Positions 12,784 to 34,392 of a stretch of DNA of 64,000 nt are shown piece by piece. How positions within the stretch are numbered: the stretch's first letter is position 1; every line of letters starts with the position of its first letter. A program made the position numbers and the translations under genes. The stretch lies in contig CBDEVX010000016.1 of assembly GCA_965243785.1 (NCBI GenBank), positions 106,351 through 170,350 of the forward strand, in the 5' to 3' direction. The notes under the pieces are model-generated. The model was not told where the DNA came from and searched no databases. It saw only the letters and a list, made by a program, of their open reading frames with translations. The stretch comes from Hyphococcus sp. Its GTDB lineage: Bacteria > Pseudomonadota > Alphaproteobacteria > Caulobacterales > Parvularculaceae.

Positions 12784-13764
12784 ATGTATCTCAAACTTGT
12801 CCCCGCCAAGACAAACGTTCCTTTCATTAAGGTTCGCTTCATCGCTATGCTGTTTTCAGCGGCGCTGATCGTCGGATCCTTTTTCGCTCTTTTCACAATG
12901 GGCCTCAATTTCGGCATCGACTTTCGGGGCGGCGTCACGATTGAGGTCACCGATTCCGAACCGATCGAACTCGACGCCGTGCGATCAACGGTCGGCGAAC
13001 TCGGCCTCGGAAACGTCAATGTTCAGGCGATCCGAGATTTTGCCGGGTCGGAACCGGCCGTCGTTGTTTATGTCGAGCAACAACAGGTCGATGCGGCTGA
13101 ATCCGGCGAAGACGTCGCGACGGCGAATGAAAATGCGCAGCAGCAAGCGGCTGTCGCGGTACAGGACGCGCTTCGCGGCCTCCTCGGCGACGACATGGTC
13201 GTTAGAAAAGTAGACGTTGTTGGCCCCACCGTTTCCGGTGAGCTGATCCAGAAAGGCGCGACGGCCGTAGCGCTCGCGATCGCGATGATGCTCATCTACA
13301 TCTGGCTTCGATTCGAGTGGCAGTTCTCGCTCGGGGCAATTGTCGCCCTGGTCCATGACGTGATCATCACGATGGGCATGTTCGCCGTGACGCAACTGAA
13401 GTTCGAGCTCGCCATCATCGCGGCGATCCTGACCATCGTCGGTTATTCGATGAACGATACGGTCGTCGTCTACGATCGCGTTCGTGAAAATCTGCGCAAG
13501 TATAAGTCAAAACCGCTGGCGGAAGTTCTAGACCTTTCCATCAACGACACGCTGTCCCGCACGGTCATGACCTCCGTCACCACCTTGTTGGCGTTGATAT
13601 CGCTGGCGGTATTCGGCGGCGAAGTCCTGCGCGGGTTCACCCTCGCCATGATCTGGGGGATCGTGATCGGGACCTATTCGTCAATCTTTGTCGCCTCGCC
13701 GTTTCTCCTGGCGACCGGCGTCAAACGCGACTGGTCGAAACAGGCCGCTGCGGCAACGGCCTGA
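12784..13764 (+). CDS. secF: Protein translocase subunit SecF
   Basis: GLNFGIDFRGG, VGPTVSGEL and GYSMNDTVVVYDRVRE. True start is ATG 12784; the ORF-track extension overlaps secD. Confidence 0.96.
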   Translation: MYLKLVPAKTNVPFIKVRFIAMLFSAALIVGSFFALFTMGLNFGIDFRGGVTIEVTDSEPIELDAVRSTVGELGLGNVNVQAIRDFAGSEPAVVVYVEQQQVDAAESGEDVATANENAQQQAAVAVQDALRGLLGDDMVVRKVDVVGPTVSGELIQKGATAVALAIAMMLIYIWLRFEWQFSLGAIVALVHDVIITMGMFAVTQLKFELAIIAAILTIVGYSMNDTVVVYDRVRENLRKYKSKPLAEVLDLSINDTLSRTVMTSVTTLLALISLAVFGGEVLRGFTLAMIWGIVIGTYSSIFVASPFLLATGVKRDWSKQAAAATA

Positions 13765-13767
13765 CAA

Positions 13768-14340
13768 TCACCTTACGCGCTTGACCTTGAATTTCGAGCT
13801 GCGCTCGCCGTACTGAACGGTCCAGCTTCCCAGCATGCCCGGCGCCAGCCGGGCGCTTTCGCCGCGGCGGGGCTTGGCGCCGACGGCGGCGGCGAGTTCG
13901 CGCCACGTCTCGCCGTTTTCAAGTTCAACGTTCCTGACTTTATAGCCCGTCGTAAAGACGCGGACGATTTTGCTTTCATAGGCCTCGCGACTTTCCTCGC
14001 GTTCTTTTACGCCCGCTTTTCGCCTTAGCTCCGCCAGTTCCTCAGCGTCGGCTTTTGGCAGCAAGACATAATCTTCACTGGGCGCAGGCGGCGCGACCGC
14101 TGGGGCCGGCGCTGCTGAAGCAGCCAGTTCGCCGTTCTCGACGCTTTCAGGCGCCGTTTCCTCAACGGCGCCGCTGCGGCCGGCCATCGTCGCATCAAAA
14201 CAGGCTAGACGCGCAGCGTTGTCGTTTATTGCCGCGCACTCAGCCAGACGGTCCGCCTGCGGAGCGTCCGCTGCAAAGACCGGCGTAACGAACATCGAAG
14301 AAATGGCGAAAAGCGATAGCAGGCGTTTTTGTTGCGGCAC
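13768..14340 (-). CDS. Exported hypothetical protein, paralogue A (CA...D..RLACF motif plus C-terminal beta domain)
   Basis: GTG at 14340 with GGAGG 5 nt upstream; signal-peptide-like N-terminus; ECAAINDNAARLACFD and VELENGETWRE...PGMLGSW. Confidence 0.75.
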   Translation of the reverse strand: MPQQKRLLSLFAISSMFVTPVFAADAPQADRLAECAAINDNAARLACFDATMAGRSGAVEETAPESVENGELAASAAPAPAVAPPAPSEDYVLLPKADAEELAELRRKAGVKEREESREAYESKIVRVFTTGYKVRNVELENGETWRELAAAVGAKPRRGESARLAPGMLGSWTVQYGERSSKFKVKRVR

Positions 14341-14507
14341 AGTTTCCTCCGGTCCTTTCGGATGGCGGCCGATGATCATTGCCGCCACCCTCTAAGACAA
14401 TCGAAGGCGCACCATCCCGCAATCGCGCATCGCAACGCCGCAACACGTGATGCAAAAAAACCACGGATTCCAGGTTGTTGCCGCCGATTTCTGCCGGCTG
14501 AGCGGTG

Positions 14508-15143
14508 TCAGTTTATTGGGCGCATGCGTACGCCAAAGCGGCCGCCGTCCATCGATACGGTCCATCCGCCGAGAAGCCCGGGTTTCATCACAACTTCATC
14601 GCCGCGCTGCGGGTCATGGCGCGTGCCGCGCCCGGTCTGTCGCCAGATCTCGCCATTGGTGAAGGCTATGCGTAGTTCGCCGAGCCCGTTACGCCACGAT
14701 TTGTACACCGTCAGCGTATAGCGTTCGCGTTTCCGTTTTTTCTCTTTTTTCGCGTGACGCTCTTTCTTGTCGCCTTTCTTGGTGCGGACAAACGTCAAAC
14801 TCTCGTCGTCTTCCAGCGGGCGCACGGCGCTTTTCTCTGGCGAATCCGCTTCGACGGAGGCCGAGGGCGCGGTTACGGGCGGGGCCGCATCTTCCGTCGT
14901 CGGCGCATTCGGATCGGCGTCGGCCAACTCAGGCGGCGCAGCGACGGCGGCAAGCGCCTCAAAGCAGGCGAGCCGTTCGTCTTTGTCGTCAAATGCGGCG
15001 CAAAGGCGAAGTGCGTCCGTTACTGAGAGATCTTCGATCTCTTCGGCCCAGGCCGTCGCGCCGAAAATAAAAGAGGCGGCGAGCAATGCCGAAAATAGAG
15101 ACTTTGCACTGCCTGTTTGCGATATTGCGCGATAATCTGTCAT
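14508..15143 (-). CDS. Exported hypothetical protein, paralogue B
   Basis: Signal-peptide-like N-terminus; LCAAFDDKDERLACFE and IAFTNGEIWRQ...PGLLGGW, collinear with paralogue A. Confidence 0.75.
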   Translation of the reverse strand: MTDYRAISQTGSAKSLFSALLAASFIFGATAWAEEIEDLSVTDALRLCAAFDDKDERLACFEALAAVAAPPELADADPNAPTTEDAAPPVTAPSASVEADSPEKSAVRPLEDDESLTFVRTKKGDKKERHAKKEKKRKRERYTLTVYKSWRNGLGELRIAFTNGEIWRQTGRGTRHDPQRGDEVVMKPGLLGGWTVSMDGGRFGVRMRPIN

Positions 15144-15519
15144 TTTTGCCCAACCTTATGACCGCGGACGCTAAACAATACCTCGTCCGCACAAACCGAT
15201 TCGCGCGGAAAATGGATGCCGTCCCATAAACAGGCCGATTCCATAAGCGACATTCGGTACGGTGGCAATCGATGCGCGATTAGCGCCGGCTCGCTAAATG
15301 CATGATGTATTTGCGCAACATTGCCGAGCCATTGCGAAGGCAAAGCCTCTCTGACGTTTGACATGACAAAACGGTGATGAAAGGATTTCGCAGAAATTCG
15401 GGGTGCGCGATCAATGTTGCCGATCCACCGGCGGCTAGCATGATCCGCTGGTGCCGAGTTCTGGGAGGGCTGCGTATCGGCCGTTCCGTTTTATTGGGCA
15501 ACTATTGGGCAGACTAAAA

Positions 15520-18500
15520 ATGATCAAAAAAATGAATCCGGATTCCGCGCTATTGCGCGGTTTTCTCGCTACGGGTGCGTCGGTATTCGCACTTGGCGCG
15601 ACAGCACCTGTTTTAGCGCAGGGCGACGAAGACGACGTCGCCACGATCGCTGAAATCGAAGAAGATATCGAAGACGCGCGCACGGGCGATCAGATTATCG
15701 TCACGGGCTCGCGCGTTCGAAGAAACGAGTTTACGTCGGCGTCGCCGCTGCAGGTCATCGATGGCCAGGTCAGCCGCGAACTCGGCGTATTCGACACCGC
15801 GCGCCTGCTGCAGGAATCGGCCGTCGCTACCGGCCAACAAATCAACGACACGTTTGGCGGCTTTGTTCTCGACAACGGTCCGGGCGCTTCCACGGTCGCG
15901 CTTCGCGGTATTGATCCTGAGCGCACGCTGCTCCTCCTAAACGGTCGCCGGCTTGCGCCGGGCGGCGTTGAGGGCGCGCCGACGTCTCCGGACCTCAACC
16001 TCATCCCGTCGTCTCTGATCGGCCGTGTCGATGTGCTGCTTGACGGTGCGTCGCCAGTATATGGCTCTGATGCTGTTGCGGGCGTGGCGAACGTCATCTT
16101 GCGCGACGACTTCGACGGCTTCGAAATCGAAACGGCGTTCAACGTACCCTTTACGGGCGGCGGCAAGACCTCTCAAGTCTCTGCGAGCTGGGGTGTTTCG
16201 AATGATCGTGGCTTCATCGGCGTCGGCGCAGAATTCTTCCGTCGCGACCAGTTCTCCGTTGCGGATGCTGATCTCACCTGTAACGAGCACCATCAGGAAG
16301 ATGAGAACGGCAATATCCGCAATATTGAGGTCGATGTCCAACCCGGTACGAGCCGCCAGCCCTGTAAGACGCAGATTATCGGCCGTTTCAGGACTTTCGG
16401 CATCGACGACAACTTTGGCGGAAGCGGCACGTCGTTTGGCGACCTTTTCTATACGCCAGGGACGAGTAACGTTGGCGTGCCGAATTTCTCCGATGAAATC
16501 GACGCAGATGGCGACGGATTTCTTGATATTGATTCTCGCGCCCCGATCTTCACCGGTGCGGACCAGAGCCGGTCGCTGGTTCAGAACCAGGACCTCATCT
16601 CGCCGCTTGAGCGGATTTCGTTCATGGCGTTCGGGAACTACGAGCTTGAAGAACTCAACAATATGGAGACGTTCTTCGAGTTTATGTATGCAGAACGCGA
16701 CTCGAAAATCACCGGCGACGGCGCTCAGATTTTCCCAACGGTTCTGACCACCAACCCGACCAACCCGTGCGGTCTCGAAGCCCTTGCAGCCGATCCAACG
16801 CTTTGCGGCGGCGGCCCGCAGCAGGTCGTGCCGATCGTTCTGATTGACGGCGATCGCAACACGACCCAGGTCGAGCAGACGCAAATCCGCATCGTCGGCG
16901 GCATCCGCGGCGACCTGCCGTTCTGGAACGAGGATCCGGGCGACGGCCTTTTCGGGCTCAGCAACTGGAACTATGAACTGAGCGGCAGTTTCTCACGCTC
17001 GCTCGGTACGTCTGTGCGTCGCGGCATTATCGAAGATCGCCTTGCGCTTTCATTGCGCACGACGACGCGGCTCCCGGATGGCACCCTGGGTTGCGGACCG
17101 GATTTTAATGGCGACGGGCTTCCTGATCTCGCAAATGACGCCGAACTATTCGGTTTCTTGACGGACAATCCTTGCGTGCCGGTGAACCTGTTCTCCGCGA
17201 ACGTGATGCAAGGCAACGTCCTGACGCCGGAAGAAGAAGAATACCTCTTTGGCGTTCGAACGTTCGGCACCGAGATCAAGCAGTCCATCATCTCGGGCTT
17301 CCTGTCGGGCGGCGTCATGAACGTCCCTGCCGGCGAAGTTCTTCTGGGCCTCGGCTTTGAATATCGTCAGGATGAGATCGATTCCCGTCCGGACGACAAC
17401 GCGGAAGACGGCAACTTCATCGGCTTCTTTGCCGACCGTGGCGCCGTTGGCCGTCGCGAGCTGAAAGAAGGTTACGGCGAGCTTATCGTCCCGATCTTCA
17501 GAGATCAGCCCTTCGCACAGGAGCTCACCGTTGAAGCGGCTGGCCGCGTCACGAATGAGTCCTTCTACGGCACGAACTGGACCTATGCGGTCAAGGGCAT
17601 CTACATGCCGTTCGACTGGCTGACCATCCGCGGCTCCCGTGGTACGTCGTTCCGCGCGCCGAATCTGCGCGAGCAGTTCTTCCGCGGCGCGACCGGCTTC
17701 CAGTCGGCCTTCGCGGACGTTTGTACGGTTCCGCCGGCGGCGAACAATGGCGGCGTCTATGATGCAGCCAACGATCCGCGTTCTGCGCGGGTTCTCGCCA
17801 ACTGCGTGCTCGACGGCGTCGATCCGACAGCGTTGGGTCTCATGGGCGCATCGTCGATCGAAGTGCTAACCGGCGGCACCACGCTGCTGGAAGCGGAAAC
17901 TTCTCGCACGTTCACCGTGGGCGGCGTTCTAGACGTTCCGTTCGCAGACATGGGCTTGGGCGACAATATCGGCTTGAATCTTTCGGTGACGCACTTTGAC
18001 ATCCGCGTCGAAAACACCGTCGAAGAGCCGTCTGTCACGTTCCTGTTCAATGACTGCTACGACTCTCGCGATGATCTCAGCAGTGCGTTCTGTAACCGCA
18101 TTACGCGCGATCCGAACACGGGCTTTGTCGATATCGTCGATGCGGGCTTCATCAACATCGGCGTCATCACATCGCGCGGCATGGACTACAATGTGCTGTT
18201 TGAATATGACGGCTTCACGGTCGCGAACGAGCCGCTTGAACTCTCGCTCGACGTTCGTGCGACGCAACTGTTCGAACAGACGCAGACAGTCATCGATACG
18301 TTCGACGATAACGTCGGTGAATTCGGCACGCCGACATGGCGTGGTCAAGCGACCTTGCTCGCTGACTTGGCCGACTGGCGTTTCCTCTGGCGCGCTCGGT
18401 ACATCGGTTCTCAGAGCGTATTTTCGAGCGTGGATGACGGCGATCCGCCGGCCTTCGGCGCCGATGACACCTGTCAAGCGGTTCTTGACATCACGGGCGC

Positions 18501-18765
18501 ACGCGACACGTCTGATGTCGGTTGCCGTCCGACGTTCTCGGTTGACGATTACATCGTCAACGATGCGTCGATCACATGGCGCAATGATGTCTGGTCGGCG
18601 ACGGTCGGCATCAACAACGTCTTTGATCGCAAACCGCCCAGAGTTGACTCGACAAACAACTTCACCAGCGGCTTGCTCGTATCGCCGGCGGGCAACTATC
18701 CGCTCGGCGTCGGCTACGACTTCCTTGGCCGCTCATTCCAGGTTTCGGTTCAACGCAAGTTCTAA
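15520..18765 (+). CDS. TonB-dependent outer membrane receptor
   Basis: Signal peptide, TonB-box region QIIVTGSR, plug motifs (LRGIDPERTLLLLNGRR; RVDVLLDGASPVYGSDAVAGVANVI), RGTSFRAPNL, and C-terminal GRSFQVSVQRKF ending in Phe. Confidence 0.96.
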   Translation: MIKKMNPDSALLRGFLATGASVFALGATAPVLAQGDEDDVATIAEIEEDIEDARTGDQIIVTGSRVRRNEFTSASPLQVIDGQVSRELGVFDTARLLQESAVATGQQINDTFGGFVLDNGPGASTVALRGIDPERTLLLLNGRRLAPGGVEGAPTSPDLNLIPSSLIGRVDVLLDGASPVYGSDAVAGVANVILRDDFDGFEIETAFNVPFTGGGKTSQVSASWGVSNDRGFIGVGAEFFRRDQFSVADADLTCNEHHQEDENGNIRNIEVDVQPGTSRQPCKTQIIGRFRTFGIDDNFGGSGTSFGDLFYTPGTSNVGVPNFSDEIDADGDGFLDIDSRAPIFTGADQSRSLVQNQDLISPLERISFMAFGNYELEELNNMETFFEFMYAERDSKITGDGAQIFPTVLTTNPTNPCGLEALAADPTLCGGGPQQVVPIVLIDGDRNTTQVEQTQIRIVGGIRGDLPFWNEDPGDGLFGLSNWNYELSGSFSRSLGTSVRRGIIEDRLALSLRTTTRLPDGTLGCGPDFNGDGLPDLANDAELFGFLTDNPCVPVNLFSANVMQGNVLTPEEEEYLFGVRTFGTEIKQSIISGFLSGGVMNVPAGEVLLGLGFEYRQDEIDSRPDDNAEDGNFIGFFADRGAVGRRELKEGYGELIVPIFRDQPFAQELTVEAAGRVTNESFYGTNWTYAVKGIYMPFDWLTIRGSRGTSFRAPNLREQFFRGATGFQSAFADVCTVPPAANNGGVYDAANDPRSARVLANCVLDGVDPTALGLMGASSIEVLTGGTTLLEAETSRTFTVGGVLDVPFADMGLGDNIGLNLSVTHFDIRVENTVEEPSVTFLFNDCYDSRDDLSSAFCNRITRDPNTGFVDIVDAGFINIGVITSRGMDYNVLFEYDGFTVANEPLELSLDVRATQLFEQTQTVIDTFDDNVGEFGTPTWRGQATLLADLADWRFLWRARYIGSQSVFSSVDDGDPPAFGADDTCQAVLDITGARDTSDVGCRPTFSVDDYIVNDASITWRNDVWSATVGINNVFDRKPPRVDSTNNFTSGLLVSPAGNYPLGVGYDFLGRSFQVSVQRKF

Positions 18766-18790
18766 CCGAGGTCAAAACACTGCAGTAAAG

Positions 18791-18821
18791 AAAGGGCCGG
18801 AGCATCGCTCCGGCCCTTTTT
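18791..18821 (+). terminator. Intrinsic terminator, probably bidirectional
   Basis: AAAGGGCCGGAGC-ATC-GCTCCGGCCCTTTTT, a perfect stem with A and T tails, between the TBDR stop and the convergent sod remnant. Confidence 0.9.
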
Positions 18822-18850
18822 CATTAAGCAGCATTAATTGACGGTGCGGT

Positions 18851-18960
18851 TCACGCCGCCTTCAAATTTGCATTCGCGAAGTCCCAATTGATGAGATGGT
18901 TGAGGAATGCGGCGTCCGATCGCCTTTGGCGTAGGGCAGGTCCGGTAGCGTGACGGACAT
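18851..18960 (-). pseudogene. sodB: Fe/Mn superoxide dismutase remnant with a large internal deletion and frameshift
   Basis: From ATG 18960: MSVTLPDLPYAKG (SOD N-terminus). In a different frame, ending at TGA 18851: AAFLNHLINWDFANANLKAA* (SOD C-terminus). Only 110 bp separate start and stop. Confidence 0.78.
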
Positions 18961-18995
18961 TCGAACTTCTTTTTGAGGGATTTTCGGGTCGAATC

Positions 18996-19012
18996 TGCGC
19001 AATGATTGCGCA
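18996..19012. promoter_or_regulatory. Perfect 8-1-8 palindrome, candidate operator
   Basis: TGCGCAAT-G-ATTGCGCA between the divergent sod remnant and puuD-like starts. Confidence 0.5.
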
Positions 19013-19113
19013 TAAGGCCGGACTCGCGGTTTAACACCGCCGGATGCGGAATAGTTCCGGCCCGCCGAAATGTGTTATGGGCGGCGCAGAGCACAACAAT
19101 TGGAGAAAAAGGA

Positions 19114-19740
19114 ATGACAGTCCTTCTGACGAATTTGCGTAACGCCGTGACCACCGGAGCCGTGTTAGCGCTCATATTGCTGCTACTCTATTTAACGGCA
19201 TGGAGCGGTTCGCTGGACATTGCGTTCTGGCAGTTCTTTTTCCGTTGGCTGCATGTCCTGTCTGGCGTGATGTGGATCGGGTTGCTCTGGTATTTCAACT
19301 TCGTGCAGATCCCCCAGATGCCCGGCATTCCTGATGAACAAAAACCGGCCATCGGCAAACACATTGCGCCGAAGGCCCTGTTCTGGTTCCGCTGGGGCGC
19401 CATGGCGACCATCATCACCGGGCTTATTCTCGCCTATCTCAACAATTACTTCGTCAACGTCCTGACGCTCGGCGCCGTCAACGGCTTCGCAGTGCCCGGA
19501 CATATCGCGCTCGGCATCGGCATGTGGTTCGGCATCATCATGTGGTTCAATGTCTGGTTCATTATCTGGCCGAACCAGCAAAAGGCACTGAATATCGACA
19601 ACAAATATCCTGACCTGTCCGCCGACGACAAAGCGAAGGCTGGGCGTACGGCGATGCTCTTTTCACGGACAAATACGGTCCTGTCGATCCCCATGCTTTT
19701 CGCCATGGTGTCGGCGCAGGGGTTGTTCCGGATCTCATAA
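19114..19740 (+). CDS. PuuD-family (DUF989) membrane protein, membrane domain only
   Basis: FFRWLHVLSGVMWIGLLWYFNFVQ, KALFWFRWGA, WFNVWFIIWPNQQK and SRTNTVLSIPMLFAM. ATG 19114 follows GGAGAAAAAGGA. Confidence 0.85.
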   Translation: MTVLLTNLRNAVTTGAVLALILLLLYLTAWSGSLDIAFWQFFFRWLHVLSGVMWIGLLWYFNFVQIPQMPGIPDEQKPAIGKHIAPKALFWFRWGAMATIITGLILAYLNNYFVNVLTLGAVNGFAVPGHIALGIGMWFGIIMWFNVWFIIWPNQQKALNIDNKYPDLSADDKAKAGRTAMLFSRTNTVLSIPMLFAMVSAQGLFRIS

Positions 19741-19746
19741 ACGGCG

Positions 19747-20442
19747 GTGGACGCAGCAGCTCATTGTGATGCGCTGCTGCGTCAGCGCGATGAGGACCGA
19801 TGGCTGGCGGCGCGTTATGCGCCGCCACCATTACGTCGATGCCTGACTGCGCTTTACGCCTTACACAGTGAATTGCGGCTTATTCCCGGCCGGGTCAGTG
19901 AGCCGCCGCTCGGCGAGATTCGCGTTCAATGGCATCGCGACGCCCTCGCGGAACTGCGCGACGGAAAGCGTCCGCGCGCGCACCCGGTCATTGAGGAGGT
20001 CGCCGCCGCGGACCTTGCCGCGGAACCGCTTCGGCCATGGATCGACGCCGCCATTGATGCGTCGTCGCGGCCTCTTTACGGCGAAGGTTTTACGGACGTC
20101 GATGACCTCCTCGACTGGTTGCGCGCCGCTGAAGGGACGATCGACGCCGCCGCCGTCGCCTTAAGCGGCGGCGACGAGACTCTGTCTTTCGTTGCGCAAG
20201 AGGCCGGCGCCGCGTTTGCGGCGGCGCGCGAGGGAGGCGTTATTGCACCGGATGTCAACTTTGCGGAACGAACGCGCGCACTATGGCGAAAGGCAAAGCC
20301 GGTCATGCAGGTCGCGCAGGATTCATGCGCTCCGGCGCTCGCCCACCTTTTCCTGACGCCCGCGTATTTGCGGCGCGGCGCGCGGGCCTTTCCGCTCGTC
20401 AAGCGGTTGAGGATTTTTGGCGCGGTCGCTTTTGCGCGCTAG
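19747..20442 (+). CDS. Squalene/phytoene synthase family protein (NDUFAF6-like, probably non-catalytic)
   Basis: DEDRWLAARYAP, ALYALHSEL and VSEPPLGEIRVQWHRDAL; no DDxxD motif. Confidence 0.85.
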   Translation: MDAAAHCDALLRQRDEDRWLAARYAPPPLRRCLTALYALHSELRLIPGRVSEPPLGEIRVQWHRDALAELRDGKRPRAHPVIEEVAAADLAAEPLRPWIDAAIDASSRPLYGEGFTDVDDLLDWLRAAEGTIDAAAVALSGGDETLSFVAQEAGAAFAAAREGGVIAPDVNFAERTRALWRKAKPVMQVAQDSCAPALAHLFLTPAYLRRGARAFPLVKRLRIFGAVAFAR

Positions 20443-20445
20443 GCG

Positions 20446-22080
20446 CTATGTGTGATGCTCAACATGTTGATCGATAAGCGCCGTGTTATAGGCTTGGAGC
20501 GCTTTGACGCGCGACAGATACCCGATCACATTGTCACGTTCATCGGCGTCTACGACTGGCAATCCATATTCCTGTGAATCGGTCAGTCTCGCTAATGCTT
20601 CGCCCAGTGAATTCCTGTCAAGCAGGCGGGGCGCCTCTTGCGACAGGGGCGCGCCCGGCGGCATTTTCTCCATGACGTCGCGCACGCGGATCGTCTGTAG
20701 CAACACGCCGTGCGGGCCTTCGGACAAATCATAACCGCGCCGGCCCAGTTGCCAGTGGAAGAAGGATTTGCCGCAGAGCCATTGCGTAATCAGCGTTGCA
20801 ATCGCCACCGCAACCATCAGCGAAATTGTAATCCCGTATTCGCCGGTCAGCTCGAAAACGATAAGCGTTGTCGATATCGGTGCGCCGAGAATAGCGCCGG
20901 CCGCGGCGCCCATGCCGATCATGGCGTAGTAAACCGGGCTTGCGGTCGCCTCTGGAAATAGTTGGCCGAGTGTTGCGCCAAAAGCGGCGCCGGCGAAGGC
21001 GCCGATGACGATGCCTGGCGAAAAAACCCCGCCGCCAAATCGGCAGGATAACGTCACCGCCGTCGCCGCGCACTTCATCACGACCAATGTCGCCAGCGCA
21101 AGGATCGTGTATTCGCCGGCAAGGGCCTTCGTAACGGCTTCGTATCCGACGCCGAAAACTTCCGGATAGAACGCGCCGATCAACCCGACGATCAAACCGC
21201 CAAGCGGCGGCAGGAACAGATAGGAAAAGCCTATCCGGTCAGCGCGCTCGCGAACTTTTTCGGTCAGATTCTCTGTCGCTAGCAAAAAACCAGATGCGAT
21301 CAGTCCGCACAACACGCCGAGCAACGCGGCCAGCGGCACGTCGATTGTATGGACGGTGCCATAGGCGGGCGGGGCGAACGCCGGAAAATCGCCGAGGTGA
21401 ATGCGTGTGACAATTGCTGATGCGACGCTGGCCGCGGCGATCGGTCCGAATACGGACAATGCATAGTTCCCCATAATCACCTCAAGCGCAAAGAGGACGC
21501 CTGCGATGGGTGCGTTAAAGCTGGCTGAAACGGCGGCCGCTGCGCCACAGCCGAGAAGGGCGCGCCGTTGTTTCGCCGTGAACCCCATATGGCGATCGAG
21601 GAAAGACGCAATGGTGGCGCCCAGATGGACGGCTGGGCCTTCGCGACCTGCGCTGGCGCCGGACCCGAGCGAGACCGCAGAGACCGCCGCGGCGGCGAGG
21701 CCGGCCCTCAGTGATACCCGTCCGGCGCCGACAGCGCGCGCCTCAATCACGTCAGAGATCCCCTGGGCGCGGCCGTTTTCAAGCCATTTGAACCGGTCGG
21801 CGAAGAACAGCATGGCGCTGACGGCGACGCCGCCGATGACCGGCGCGGCCCAGGCGCGAAAAAAGTCAAGACGTTTGGCGCCGCTGACGACGCCGGCCTC
21901 ATCGGCCCCGAACGCAATCGTTGAGACGAAGTCGATCACGCCGCGAAAAAGGATCACTGCATAGGCGACAGCGACGCCGATCAGAATTGCGAACAGCCAG
22001 ACCCGCCACACATCGAGTCTTGCGGCGCGCCGGCGCATTCTCCTCAGGAAAATGAGAACGCGCGCAACCTTCCGGGTCAT
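20446..22080 (-). CDS. ClC-family chloride channel/transporter with C-terminal CBS region
   Basis: SAGREGPAVHLG, FNAPIAGVLFALE, GGGVFSPG, GAPISTTLIVFELTG and C-terminal VRDVM...LPVVD. Confidence 0.93.
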   Translation of the reverse strand: MTRKVARVLIFLRRMRRRAARLDVWRVWLFAILIGVAVAYAVILFRGVIDFVSTIAFGADEAGVVSGAKRLDFFRAWAAPVIGGVAVSAMLFFADRFKWLENGRAQGISDVIEARAVGAGRVSLRAGLAAAAVSAVSLGSGASAGREGPAVHLGATIASFLDRHMGFTAKQRRALLGCGAAAAVSASFNAPIAGVLFALEVIMGNYALSVFGPIAAASVASAIVTRIHLGDFPAFAPPAYGTVHTIDVPLAALLGVLCGLIASGFLLATENLTEKVRERADRIGFSYLFLPPLGGLIVGLIGAFYPEVFGVGYEAVTKALAGEYTILALATLVVMKCAATAVTLSCRFGGGVFSPGIVIGAFAGAAFGATLGQLFPEATASPVYYAMIGMGAAAGAILGAPISTTLIVFELTGEYGITISLMVAVAIATLITQWLCGKSFFHWQLGRRGYDLSEGPHGVLLQTIRVRDVMEKMPPGAPLSQEAPRLLDRNSLGEALARLTDSQEYGLPVVDADERDNVIGYLSRVKALQAYNTALIDQHVEHHT

Positions 22081-22223
22081 GACTTTTGCCTTGCCGCTTA
22101 AGGGAACTTCTTCATATCAGCATTCACCGCGCAGTCTAAATGTCACGATATGATTAACGCAGCATTCATCCTGCTTTGGCAGACTCTTGGCTGAGTCTTT
22201 CGGAAATCAGGACAGGCGAAATC

Positions 22224-25037
22224 ATGGCGGCAACGACGTCGGCGGCGACCCGCAATCAAGGCGACAAGATTGACCCAAAGCGCGCGCAGGCGGCGCTGAC
22301 CCGATGGCGGCGCGCCGTCGCCGAGGCGCTGGGTCAAGATCCTGGCGCGCCCCTCGACCAGCCTGACCGGCGCTTGCTGATGTTGCGCATTTTCGGTTCG
22401 ACGCGCCGTCTCGCTGAATTGTGCATGGCGCATCCGGCGGCGGCCGCGGCCGCGTTGACGGAAGGACCGTCGGCCGTGATTGCGGAAGCGGCGCGCGACC
22501 TCGCTGCGCTCGATGGCGGCGTCGGCGGTCCGGACGTTCTTTACGCTGCGCTCGCTCCGCTGAAAAACCGCGCCGATATAGCACTCGCCATTGCGGAGCT
22601 TGGCGGTCGGTGGAGCGTCGCCGAAGCGACGGCGGCTCGCGTCGATTTCGCCGAACGTCTCGTTGAAACTGCGCTCAGGTGGCTGGTGCGCGCAGCGGTA
22701 AAACGTGGTGAGCTGACGGTTGCCGACGAAAAGAATATGATGGCGGGCGTATGCGCTGTTGCGGGCGGGGATTTCGCCCATGAGGACCTTGCTCCATACG
22801 GACCGCTCGAACTGTTTTTTCTTTATGACGAAAGTGCGTTTCCGGGACCGGCGGCCCGCGGCGCCGACCGGGTGTTTGTTCGCGTTGGCGCGGAATTGAG
22901 GGAGGCCTTTGAGGGCAAACCTGGCGACTATGCGCTCTTCGCCTTGAAGACGCCGCTCGGTTCTGGCGTTGGCGGCGCGGGCTTTACAGACAGCGTTGCG
23001 CGCGCCCGCAAAAACGCCGAAGGCCCGCAAAGCCATGCATTTCGCAGTTGGCTCGCAACGGCCCGCATCGTCGCTGGCGATCGTTCTGCGGGCGGCGCCT
23101 TTCTAGAAGAAATCGAGGATAAGGTCTGGGGCGGCGCGCCGATCTTAAATGACGAGCTTCGTGCAGCGCTTGAGAAGGAAAGCGACGATCCGCGCGCTGC
23201 GTTTCGCCGTGTCGCCGAGCTTTGCCGGCTCGCTATTGGCGGCGCGCGTCCTGTGTTTCGCACAGCGTCGGCGCGCGAGGTTTTTGAAACCGCCGCCGCC
23301 TCGAAAGCGATCGGCGCCGATGCGGCGCGCCGTCTTGTCGCCGGCGAAGAACTCGCCCATCTTGCAGTTTCGCGCGCGCAGATGATGAAGGGCGGCGCGG
23401 CGATGGATGTCGTTCGCGCTGATGAACAGGACGCGCTCGCATGTCTCTGCGGCTACGCGAATTACGAGTCGATTGCGGCGGCGCTCGACGGCGCCCGGAT
23501 TGACGCCCGCAACACGCTGGCGCGCATGATCCGCGGGCCCCAAGTCGAGGTAGAGCGTTACCAGTCGGACGAAGAAGACGCTCAGGACGCAGACAAGCTG
23601 GAAGATCTCGGCTTCGCCAATGGTGAAAGCCTTTCAGCGGCGGTCGACGGCTGGGCGCGCCGTGCTGCTGAAGACGGCGGCGACAAACGATTTTCGGCGC
23701 TGGCGCCGGGCCTTCTCACCGCGTTCGGCGAAACCCAGCGTCCGAACCGGGCGGTGCGCCTGTTCGACAAGCTCGTATGCCTTGCCGAAAACAAGGCGGA
23801 CCTCTTTGCGATGGTTAGCGAGACCGCGCCGCAGCGCGATCCGCTCATCGATGCGCTTGGCTGTTTTTCCGGCGCGATCGAGCCGCTGACCCAGACCCGC
23901 GCCGGCGTCGCGGCGTTTTTTGAGCGACCGGGCGCGGAAACCCCGCAATCGGGCGCCGAATGGCTTACGCGCTACACGCCGCCGAAAATTGAGGGCCAAA
24001 AAACCCTCGACGACTACGCTGCCTGGCGCCGTGACGTCATGGCGCGCGTTGCCTTGTGCGCCTCCGGCGGCGCCACGTCTTTTGACGCGGCGGCAGAAGC
24101 ACTGGAAGCTATTCACATCCGTACCCTGACGGATACGTTTGACTTCGCGCGCGCGACCGCGCCCTCGGGAGAAGGCGGCGCCGCGGACAAGATTGCGCTC
24201 CATGTGTTCAACGGCGCCGGCGCGCATTTGCCCGGGGCCGCCACTTGTATGGGCTTTATCGCCGACGATGATCTCGGGGAAGCAGGCGACGCATTCGCCC
24301 AACGATACATGGCGTTGCTCGGCGATTTCGGCAGCGGCGTTTTCGCTATCACGCCCGACGTCTCTCATCGTCCATCCGGCGTTAGCGGGCCGATTGCGCC
24401 GGCGCTTAAAGCCTTCAAAACCTATGTCCAGTCCGAGGCCGTTGCATATGACCAGATTATGCTTGGCCGGGCTCGCGTCATCGCCGGCGCTGAAGGCGTC
24501 GCCGACAATGCGCGCGACGCGCTTCGCGGCGCCGTCGCCGGCGGCCGCCGCGCCGACATATTGTTCCGCGATCTTGACCGCGCGCGGGCGCAGAAAATGC
24601 GCCGCGAGCGAGCGAGCTCCGATTGGGATATCGACCGTCTCGAAGGCGGCCGCGTCGATGTGGAACTGGTCGTCAGCACGTTGATCTATCGTCACGCATC
24701 AGCGCACCCTGCTGTTCAGGACGAAAATGTTTATGAGGCGATTGACGCCATGGCCCGCGCCGATCTCATTCCGGAAGACACGGCCCAGGCGCTGAAGTCG
24801 GCGCGTGCATTCTGGACGCGGATGCAGACCGTTCGCACGCTGGCGCAATGGACAGATCCCGTGGCGACGCCGATCCGCCCGCGCTTCGGTAGGCAGATTG
24901 CGCGCGCGGCGGGCGTCGACAAGTTCGAGCAGGTGCGCCCGATCATGCGTGGTTACGCTGACGATGTGTCGCGTTTCTATGCGCAACTGGTGCTGGGCCG
25001 GCCGTCACTGAGCGTTGTTTCGCAACAGGCGGGCTAA
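22224..25037 (+). CDS. GlnE-like (glutamine synthetase adenylyltransferase-like) protein with degenerate active sites
   Basis: GlnE-sized ORF with two-module architecture; remnant motifs DVSHRPSGVSGPI, LGRARVIAG and EGGRVDVELVV. The GKLG...SDxDL signatures are replaced in both halves. Confidence 0.8.
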   Translation: MAATTSAATRNQGDKIDPKRAQAALTRWRRAVAEALGQDPGAPLDQPDRRLLMLRIFGSTRRLAELCMAHPAAAAAALTEGPSAVIAEAARDLAALDGGVGGPDVLYAALAPLKNRADIALAIAELGGRWSVAEATAARVDFAERLVETALRWLVRAAVKRGELTVADEKNMMAGVCAVAGGDFAHEDLAPYGPLELFFLYDESAFPGPAARGADRVFVRVGAELREAFEGKPGDYALFALKTPLGSGVGGAGFTDSVARARKNAEGPQSHAFRSWLATARIVAGDRSAGGAFLEEIEDKVWGGAPILNDELRAALEKESDDPRAAFRRVAELCRLAIGGARPVFRTASAREVFETAAASKAIGADAARRLVAGEELAHLAVSRAQMMKGGAAMDVVRADEQDALACLCGYANYESIAAALDGARIDARNTLARMIRGPQVEVERYQSDEEDAQDADKLEDLGFANGESLSAAVDGWARRAAEDGGDKRFSALAPGLLTAFGETQRPNRAVRLFDKLVCLAENKADLFAMVSETAPQRDPLIDALGCFSGAIEPLTQTRAGVAAFFERPGAETPQSGAEWLTRYTPPKIEGQKTLDDYAAWRRDVMARVALCASGGATSFDAAAEALEAIHIRTLTDTFDFARATAPSGEGGAADKIALHVFNGAGAHLPGAATCMGFIADDDLGEAGDAFAQRYMALLGDFGSGVFAITPDVSHRPSGVSGPIAPALKAFKTYVQSEAVAYDQIMLGRARVIAGAEGVADNARDALRGAVAGGRRADILFRDLDRARAQKMRRERASSDWDIDRLEGGRVDVELVVSTLIYRHASAHPAVQDENVYEAIDAMARADLIPEDTAQALKSARAFWTRMQTVRTLAQWTDPVATPIRPRFGRQIARAAGVDKFEQVRPIMRGYADDVSRFYAQLVLGRPSLSVVSQQAG

Positions 25038-33332: not shown

Positions 33333-34392
33333 CCGCGTCGATTTTGGCCGCTAGTTTTCGAAACCCTTCAGTCGCCGGATGATCTTCCGCCGCGAGCGGC
33401 GTTCCGGCGTCCGATGCGATACGCAATTCCGGATACAGGGGCAGCGCGCCAAGGAACGGCGCGCTGAGCGATGCGGCGGCTTTTTCTGCACCGCCTTCGC
33501 CGAATAGATAGGCGCGTTCGCCGCTTGCAGTTTCCAGCCACGCCATGTTTTCGACGACGCCAATAATCGGCACATCGGTTTTTCGGAACAGTTCAACGCC
33601 GCGGCGCACGTCAGCCAAGGCCATTTCCTGAGGCGTTGACACGATGACGGCGCCTGAAAGGCGTTTTGATTGAATGAGCGACAAATGCGCGTCGCCGGTG
33701 CCCGGCGGCGTATCGACAATCAGAACGTCAAGCGGCCCCCACGCGACGTCACGCATCAATTGACGCAGCGCGCCCGTTACCATGGGCCCGCGCCAAGCGA
33801 GCGCCTGTTTCGGATCGACGAGAAAGCCGATCGACATGACGGCGACGTCATGCGCCGTCATTGGTTGAATTTTCCCATCAACCATCGCCGCCTTGCCGCT
33901 GACCCCGAACAGCGTCGGCGCCGAGGGCCCGTAGATATCGCCGTCGAGAAAGCCCGTTTTCTTTCCCGCCCGCGCGAAGGCGACGGCGAGATTGGCGGCG
34001 ACCGTCGACTTGCCGACGCCGCCCTTGCCGGAGGCGACCGCGATGACTGTCTTTACGTCGCCGAGGGCGTCGGCCTGGACTTGAGGCGGGCGCTTCAGGC
34101 CAAACGGGTTGTCGTGGCCCCCGCCGCCCTGCGGTTTGGCTGTGCTATGGGCTGTCGCAACGGCGGAAACGGAAGAAACGCCGTCAATGCGCGCCGCCGC
34201 TTCCTTGGCGTCCGACAGGATTTTTTCCGCCGCAGGTTGTTCGTTGCCGCTGATTTCCAGCGCAAACCGCACGCGCCCGTCGGGTTCGACCCTCAGCGCC
34301 TGAACGGCGCCGGACGTCACAATGTCGCGGCCATCGGGGCGCTTTATGGTGGAAAGCGCGTCGCGAACGCGTATCAACAGGGGCTCGGCCAA
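33319..34392 (-). CDS. mrp: Mrp/ApbC (NBP35-family) Fe-S cluster carrier ATPase
   Basis: VASGKGGVGKST, DGDIYGPS, WRGPM, DTPPGTGD and STPQEMAL. Confidence 0.95.
   Translation of the reverse strand: MAEPLLIRVRDALSTIKRPDGRDIVTSGAVQALRVEPDGRVRFALEISGNEQPAAEKILSDAKEAAARIDGVSSVSAVATAHSTAKPQGGGGHDNPFGLKRPPQVQADALGDVKTVIAVASGKGGVGKSTVAANLAVAFARAGKKTGFLDGDIYGPSAPTLFGVSGKAAMVDGKIQPMTAHDVAVMSIGFLVDPKQALAWRGPMVTGALRQLMRDVAWGPLDVLIVDTPPGTGDAHLSLIQSKRLSGAVIVSTPQEMALADVRRGVELFRKTDVPIIGVVENMAWLETASGERAYLFGEGGAEKAAASLSAPFLGALPLYPELRIASDAGTPLAAEDHPATEGFRKLAAKIDAAIDS

Follow-up and report, generated by a model that had tools for sequence, protein, structure and literature searches.

A superoxide dismutase gene reduced to its two ends, probably by a single deletion, in a Hyphococcus genome, and the recurrent absence of the enzyme in the genus

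Aerobic bacteria are usually considered to need a cytoplasmic superoxide dismutase (SOD) almost without exception. An E. coli sodA sodB double mutant is said, from work by Carlioz and Touati in 1986, to show oxygen-dependent auxotrophies and high mutagenesis. Lactobacillus plantarum reportedly lives in air without a cytoplasmic SOD by accumulating manganese (Archibald and Fridovich are said to have described this in 1981), and Mn-dependent protection is found in Neisseria gonorrhoeae. Deletional bias of bacterial genomes is well established, and unitary pseudogenes can be produced by deletion between short homologies. SodB itself belongs to the Fe/Mn SOD family (Sod_Fe_N plus Sod_Fe_C) and is known from solved structures such as 1ISA of E. 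coli and 4L2A and 3LIO of Pseudoalteromonas.

The locus described here lies in a 64,000-nt stretch of Hyphococcus DNA, called the window below, and can be set against each of these systems. It consists of two arms that are the 5' and 3' ends of a SodB orthologue; compared with a working SodB it is without 162 of 198 codons and all four metal ligands, and what remains is frameshifted, so that we are dealing with a relic. With unitary bacterial pseudogenes arising by short-homology deletion it shares a single internal deletion accompanied by a frame shift, the conservation of flanks and signals, and an imperfect homology at the breakpoints. It differs from the usual ones in that the gene is normally held essential for aerobic life, and in that the host is not obviously reduced and has many intact stress genes. 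The genotype class is that of the E. coli sodA sodB mutant (no cytoplasmic SOD, periplasmic SodC kept), but the E. coli strain is a laboratory construct, whereas the state seen here is natural and was found repeatedly in the genus, in 7 of 34 high-quality genomes; such a natural recurrence implies tolerance or compensation. In its gene content the host resembles the Mn-accumulating bacteria devoid of SOD: a cytoplasmic SOD gene could not be detected, and it encodes an importer of the Nramp/MntH type. Unlike L. plantarum, however, the present host is a respiring alphaproteobacterium with an aa3 oxidase, and its Nramp transporter is near-universal in the genus.

What is left of the Fe-type SOD gene is its first 18 and last 18 codons (plus the stop), joined out of frame on the minus strand between 18960 and 18851 (Table 1). 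Translation from the ATG at 18960 (ATG TCC GTC ...) gives MSVTLPDLPYAKGDRTPHSSTISSIGTSRMQI and stops at 18862, and a second frame across the same 110 nt of the minus strand gives a peptide ending in DAAFLNHLINWDFANANLKAA and terminating at 18851. Both frames had been reported in an initial annotation of the window, and the coordinates given there came out unchanged on re-reading the sequence. The retained portions had been put at about 13 and 20 codons, a count that has to be replaced by codons 1-18 and 181-198 plus stop; the 'AA' that was then placed in the C-terminal piece is probably N-terminal arm sequence (CGCCGCA) read in the other frame. The arms measure 54 and 57 nt and have one T (18907) in common, hence the total of 110 nt, and the C-terminal arm is no longer in frame with the ATG. 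A continuous Fe/Mn SOD frame of about 190-210 codons is absent at the locus, where the open reading frame (ORF) from the ATG has only 32 codons; this fusion ORF is presumed to be without function.

Table 1. Coordinates of the sod remnant and of neighboring features in the window
Feature	Position	Strand	Remarks
TonB-dependent receptor gene, convergent with sod	15451..18765	+	85% identical to G051 orthologue; start codon uncertain
GC-rich hairpin with flanking A and T runs	18787..18821	.	-30.2 kcal/mol, z -5.6; stem identical in G051
C-terminal arm	18851..18907	-	codons 181-198 and stop, FLNHLINWDFANANLKAA then stop; 52/57 nt identical to G051 3' end
Frameshifted fusion ORF, deletion product	18862..18960	-	32 codons and stop
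Junction zone of the 487-nt deletion	18907..18914	.	minus strand CGCCGCAT; two BLAST segments to G051 overlap here
N-terminal arm, Fe-SOD gene	18907..18960	-	codons 1-18, MSVTLPDLPYAKGDRTPH; 46/54 nt identical to G051 codons 1-18
Former sod Shine-Dalgarno, weakened	18966..18970	-	AGAAG here, AGGAG in G051 (upstream sequences compared)
17-bp perfect dyad, divergent promoter region	18996..19012	.	TGCGCAATCATTGCGCA; conserved in G051 and in sod-less G050 and G013, also in G003
208-aa membrane protein gene, Urate_ox_N/PuuD-like domain, divergent from sod	19114..19740	+	
SQS/PSY-like gene	19747-20442		next after membrane-protein gene
ClC channel gene	20446-22080	-	

The ancestral state of the locus was found in relatives. 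Fifty genomes of the same genus were searched with positions 18300-19750 of the window, and genome G051 was the sole relative in that search that matched both flanks and carried about 480 extra bases exactly at the junction. G051 is the closest relative compared (about 84% nucleotide identity) and is colinear with window positions 14512-23638, or about 9 kb (10 kb of G051 by BLAST, in two segments), the only gap being a block of 487 nt. This extra block is the core of an intact ORF of 198 amino acids, whose nearest solved structures are the Fe-SODs 4L2A, 3LIO and 1ISA (E 2e-74 to 7e-72). Its best NCBIfam model is superoxide dismutase [Fe], with 261 bits against 161 for [Mn], a score that does not reach the strict equivalog cut-off of 348, and it has the Fe-type motif AAQVWNH with the active-site Gln (NNAAQVWNHTFYW). 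By orthology, the window gene would have been of the Fe type as well (SodB rather than SodA), the diagnostic segment itself being among the deleted ones. The order TonB-dependent receptor, sod (on the opposite strand), PuuD-like membrane protein, SQS/PSY-like gene and ClC is found with an intact sod in G051, G023 and G052, so that the comparison of syntenic loci advised in the initial annotation does recover the full gene in relatives. Given that an intact sod occupies the same place in these genomes, the locus is ancestral and the deleted state of the window is derived.

Both arms taken together are identical to the ends of the G051 gene at 98 of 111 positions (88%, at the DNA level), and when the intact G051 SOD was compared by tblastn with the whole assembly containing the window, the two adjoining arms were the only matches (E 1.5e-4 and 6e-3). 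The SOD similarity first proposed by eye is therefore beyond chance. Each arm comprises just 18 codons, and neither reaches the Pfam threshold, which is what could be said for a fortuitous likeness of two short peptides to SOD termini. However, the arms are adjacent, in the right order, in exact synteny with an intact gene and at the above identity to its ends, so that a coincidence of this kind, whose probability we consider negligible, is already refuted.

A global alignment of the window with G051 shows that the missing 487 nt correspond to 162 codons plus one nucleotide (codons 19-180 and one base), and the additional base shifts the reading frame. The deleted part contains all four metal ligands, namely the histidines of the FHYGKHH and WNHTFYW segments and, in DVWEHAYY, an Asp and a His. 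The early statement that no metal ligand was left is thus borne out by the alignment, which places them within codons 19-180.

In G051, the context of the left breakpoint reads GAT CTG GCG CCG CAT/ATT and that of the right one GTC GAC GCG/TTC CTC (slashes mark the breakpoints), while the window reads GAT CGG ACG CCG CAT TCC TC across the junction. An imperfect 8-mer is present at the two breakpoints, CGCCGCAT on the left and CGACGCGT on the right in G051, with 6 of 8 positions matching; this microhomology is judged against G051, the sole close reference, which stands in for the true ancestral sequence of the lineage. We looked for a perfect repeat of at least 8 nt at the G051 breakpoints and found none, and a perfect direct repeat was rejected as the substrate, G051 having just the 6/8 imperfect homology. 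We infer that illegitimate recombination or replication slippage at short homology may have produced the junction.

The sequence of events could then be as follows. The ancestor would have carried a 198-aa iron SOD gene of the sodB type on the minus strand, between the genes for the TonB-dependent receptor and the PuuD-like membrane protein. One event of illegitimate recombination or replication slippage between about CGCCGCAT and CGACGCGT would have removed the 487 nt, and with them both His ligands of the N-terminal domain and the Asp and His ligands of the C-terminal domain, while shifting the frame. The region of the start codon, a nonsense ORF of 32 codons, codons 181-198 and the terminator would have stayed behind, and a few substitutions would have been gained afterwards at once-invariant positions and in the ribosome-binding site.

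A CGATCG palindrome had been noted at the junction. Its position (18917-18922) is correct, but it really lies 3 nt away from the junction zone (18907-18914). About 76 copies of the hexamer would be expected in the window, which has 64, and this copy arose by a T-to-G change, G051 reading CGATCT at the same place. We therefore rejected it as a recombination or restriction signal, being no more frequent than expected and non-palindromic in G051: it is a chance palindrome and carries no meaning.

How old is the deletion? Residues 15 and 16 of the N-terminal arm are RT, where LA is invariant elsewhere (L-A-P-H in 11 of 11 intact SODs collected from the genus), which corresponds to substitutions L15R and A16T at residues invariant in the 11 relatives, and the Shine-Dalgarno sequence has changed from GGAG to GAAG. 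Residues of the C-terminal arm are all inside the variation among SODs of the genus. To call both ends undecayed, as was done initially, was thus an overstatement. For four flanking genes, dS between the window genome and G051 is 0.68-0.98. Since the arms have kept their 88% identity despite a flank dS of 0.7-1.0, purifying selection must have acted on them during most of the period after the split. This supports a deletion that is recent compared with the separation of the species without being brand new, and the recent loss of most of sodB suggested at first is upheld in this relative sense.

An artefact of assembly, consensus or population should also be considered, in which the organism, or most of its cells, would have an intact sodB and the contig would represent a deletion allele that is either collapsed or carried by a minority. 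Exact searches for the neighboring membrane protein, and for the 27-nt junction in two public collections of genome and metagenome contigs, gave no match, a result that weighs neither way as these collections seem to lack the genus. The contig is long, and on both sides of the junction it is colinear with G051. With 8 nt at most, the microhomology is much shorter than the k-mers of assemblers, so there is no repeat on which to collapse, and none of the missing 487 nt is found elsewhere in the assembly. Moreover, substitutions at invariant codons and in the Shine-Dalgarno sequence fit time spent as a pseudogene and are not expected from a misassembly, and other routes have led to the loss of the gene in related species (see below), so that its loss is tolerated in the genus. 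For these reasons we consider an artefact unlikely. A genuine pseudogene scar, left by a single 487-nt deletion in an Fe-SOD gene at its ancestral locus, is by contrast highly probable, and we infer that the deletion has become fixed in the organism and is not a variant of the assembly or population. As such, the scar is an ordinary pseudogene of a known family.

Regulatory elements around the former gene are still in place: relative to G051, both the upstream region and the terminator are retained, as the initial annotation had it. The hairpin downstream of the C-terminal arm is a retained terminator, probably a bidirectional one, common to sod and to the convergent TonB-dependent receptor gene; a simple consensus terminator scan did not flag it. 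That it also terminates the receptor gene accounts for its having been kept. Most sod genes that are unlinked to the membrane-protein gene do not have the dyad TGCGCAATCATTGCGCA of the divergent promoter region upstream of them. Because it is kept in genomes without sod and missing at most unlinked sod genes, it may not belong to sod; a role for the PuuD-like gene, or for this gene and sod together, is more likely than one for sod alone. The search for known RNA families in the interval gave none above threshold.

These conserved elements raise the question of whether the remnant has been kept for a function, either as a 32-aa peptide or as a transcribed unit of leader, promoter and terminator serving the neighbors. 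Conservation of the promoter-region dyad and of the terminator hairpin, together with the service rendered by the latter to the convergent receptor gene, would go in this direction. However, the Shine-Dalgarno sequence is weakened, the fusion peptide is out-of-frame nonsense, and no RNA family matches. Furthermore, in G050 and G013 the dyad and a terminator persist where no sod sequence at all is left, which makes the coding arms dispensable, and the preservation of the arms is accounted for by a young deletion. A retained function is therefore very improbable, more so than an artefact, and the pseudogene reading is kept in what follows.

Does the cell have another SOD? The assembly (G000; 17 contigs, 3.4 Mb) is 97.8% complete. 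The Sod_Fe_N profile (PF00081) has no match in this genome at E<=10, and the single match of Sod_Fe_C (PF02777), on another contig with E 0.29 and an internal stop, is noise. By tblastn, the missing 487 nt are not present elsewhere in the assembly. Apart from the scar, Fe/Mn SOD is absent from the assembly; a second sod copy could sit in the unassembled part, as four members of the genus have two copies. No superoxide reductase was found in the assembly, nor any match to Ni-SOD, the latter being a weak negative since the positive control of that search matched in no control genome either.

The only remaining SOD, and the sole find of the genome-wide search for other sod genes that had been recommended, is a lipoprotein of the Cu/Zn type (L002 1309-1941; contig C14:367264-367896 of G000) with the signal ...FLTAC.... 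All four Cu ligands are kept, and a Glu occupies the position of Zn ligand His80 (GPERADLPN). Damage to SodC was considered as an explanation for this Glu and rejected, as it is conserved in orthologues across the genus, even where sodB is kept, and hence a trait of the lineage. The Cu/Zn SOD of G013 is of a different subtype, with His at the Zn-ligand 80 position. A periplasmic SOD cannot clear cytoplasmic superoxide. The reliance on another SOD that was initially put forward thus holds insofar as one exists, but this enzyme is a periplasmic lipoprotein and not a cytoplasmic one, and the gene content suggests that the cell would now live without cytoplasmic SOD.

A low-oxygen niche had been offered as another way out. 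The assembly encodes subunit I of an aa3-type oxidase, KatG, AhpC, a SoxR equivalog and an Nramp transporter; with the oxidase, KatG, AhpC and SoxR present, this gene set gives no hint of an anaerobic or strictly low-oxygen life. The KatG ORF (contig C11 of G000, from near 33935, minus strand) begins with a lipoprotein-like N-terminal signal (...AFAASCGNNE...), which suggests that KatG may be exported, leaving the removal of cytoplasmic peroxide to AhpC.

Absence of Fe/Mn SOD is not restricted to the window's genome. Sod_Fe_C is found in 33 of the 50 genomes of the genus, and in 27 of the 34 high-quality ones; the seven high-quality genomes without Fe/Mn SOD are G000, G013 (closed and 100% complete), G050, G047, G043, G046 and G054. 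Sod_Cu is present in 44 of 50 genomes. G054 (99% complete) has neither Fe/Mn nor Cu/Zn SOD, and G051, which has sodB but no sodC, is the mirror image of the window's genome. Nramp occurs in 30 of 34 high-quality genomes irrespective of sodB status; being near-universal in the genus, it was rejected as a discriminator, that is, as a specific compensation for the loss of sodB. Searches of the literature for SOD loss in these bacteria turned up nothing of use.

The genomes devoid of sod differ in the organization of the locus. The receptor adjoining the membrane-protein gene in G050 and G013 is another TonB-dependent one (about 30% identity), and no sod sequence is left. In G047, G015, G011, G044 and G018, secF directly adjoins the SQS-like gene, whereas sod sits between the two in the sod-bearing G019. 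No SOD trace was detected at the corresponding loci of the sod-less genomes G050, G013, G047, G054, G015, G011, G044 and G018. The tree of the SQS-like protein has well-supported branches that require the absence to have arisen three times or more, to which the window scar adds one more; this is a tree of a single gene, and the count of origins is a lower bound. Fe/Mn SOD was therefore lost in the genus by at least three or four separate events, and by different routes. A nucleotide tree of the right flank places G000, G051 and G050 at equal distances and does not order the events.

Some further observations concern the same region and its remnants. The interval from secF to the SQS/PSY-like gene (about 13700-19740 in the window; L129, L144-L151) is a variable hotspot in the genus, which may be empty, contain sod alone, or contain a TonB-dependent receptor, sod and the membrane protein. 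G045 has, besides an intact copy, a partial match to Sod_Fe_C (profile positions 1-47) with an in-frame TAA near a contig end (G045:C19:324-461), which may represent a further sod pseudogene. In G003 (L046, G003:C215, 5571-5824), the contig covers just 253 bp upstream of the membrane-protein gene. Its last bases hold ATGCCCGTC, the first three codons of the G051 sod, a 9-nt match that may well be due to chance.

Taken alone, the scar is a textbook pseudogene of mainly annotation value: the locus deserves the label of sodB remnant, and no cytoplasmic SOD should be credited to the organism. The genus context, with its 7 of 34 high-quality genomes without Fe/Mn SOD, is more interesting. It raises the possibility, which we advance only tentatively, that a respiring marine alphaproteobacterial genus can live in air without any cytoplasmic SOD, having shed sodB repeatedly; this apparent way of life is read from the absence of genes in draft assemblies. 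If true, it would point to an unrecognised control of cytoplasmic superoxide, by Mn-based chemistry or a new enzyme class, or alternatively to selection against an iron enzyme where seawater is poor in iron, and the window scar would be the only one of these losses caught early enough to reveal its mechanism. If confirmed in culture, close natural pairs with and without sodB, such as G051 and G000, would serve to study how a respiring bacterium manages in the absence of the enzyme, and whether its loss is driven by iron economy.
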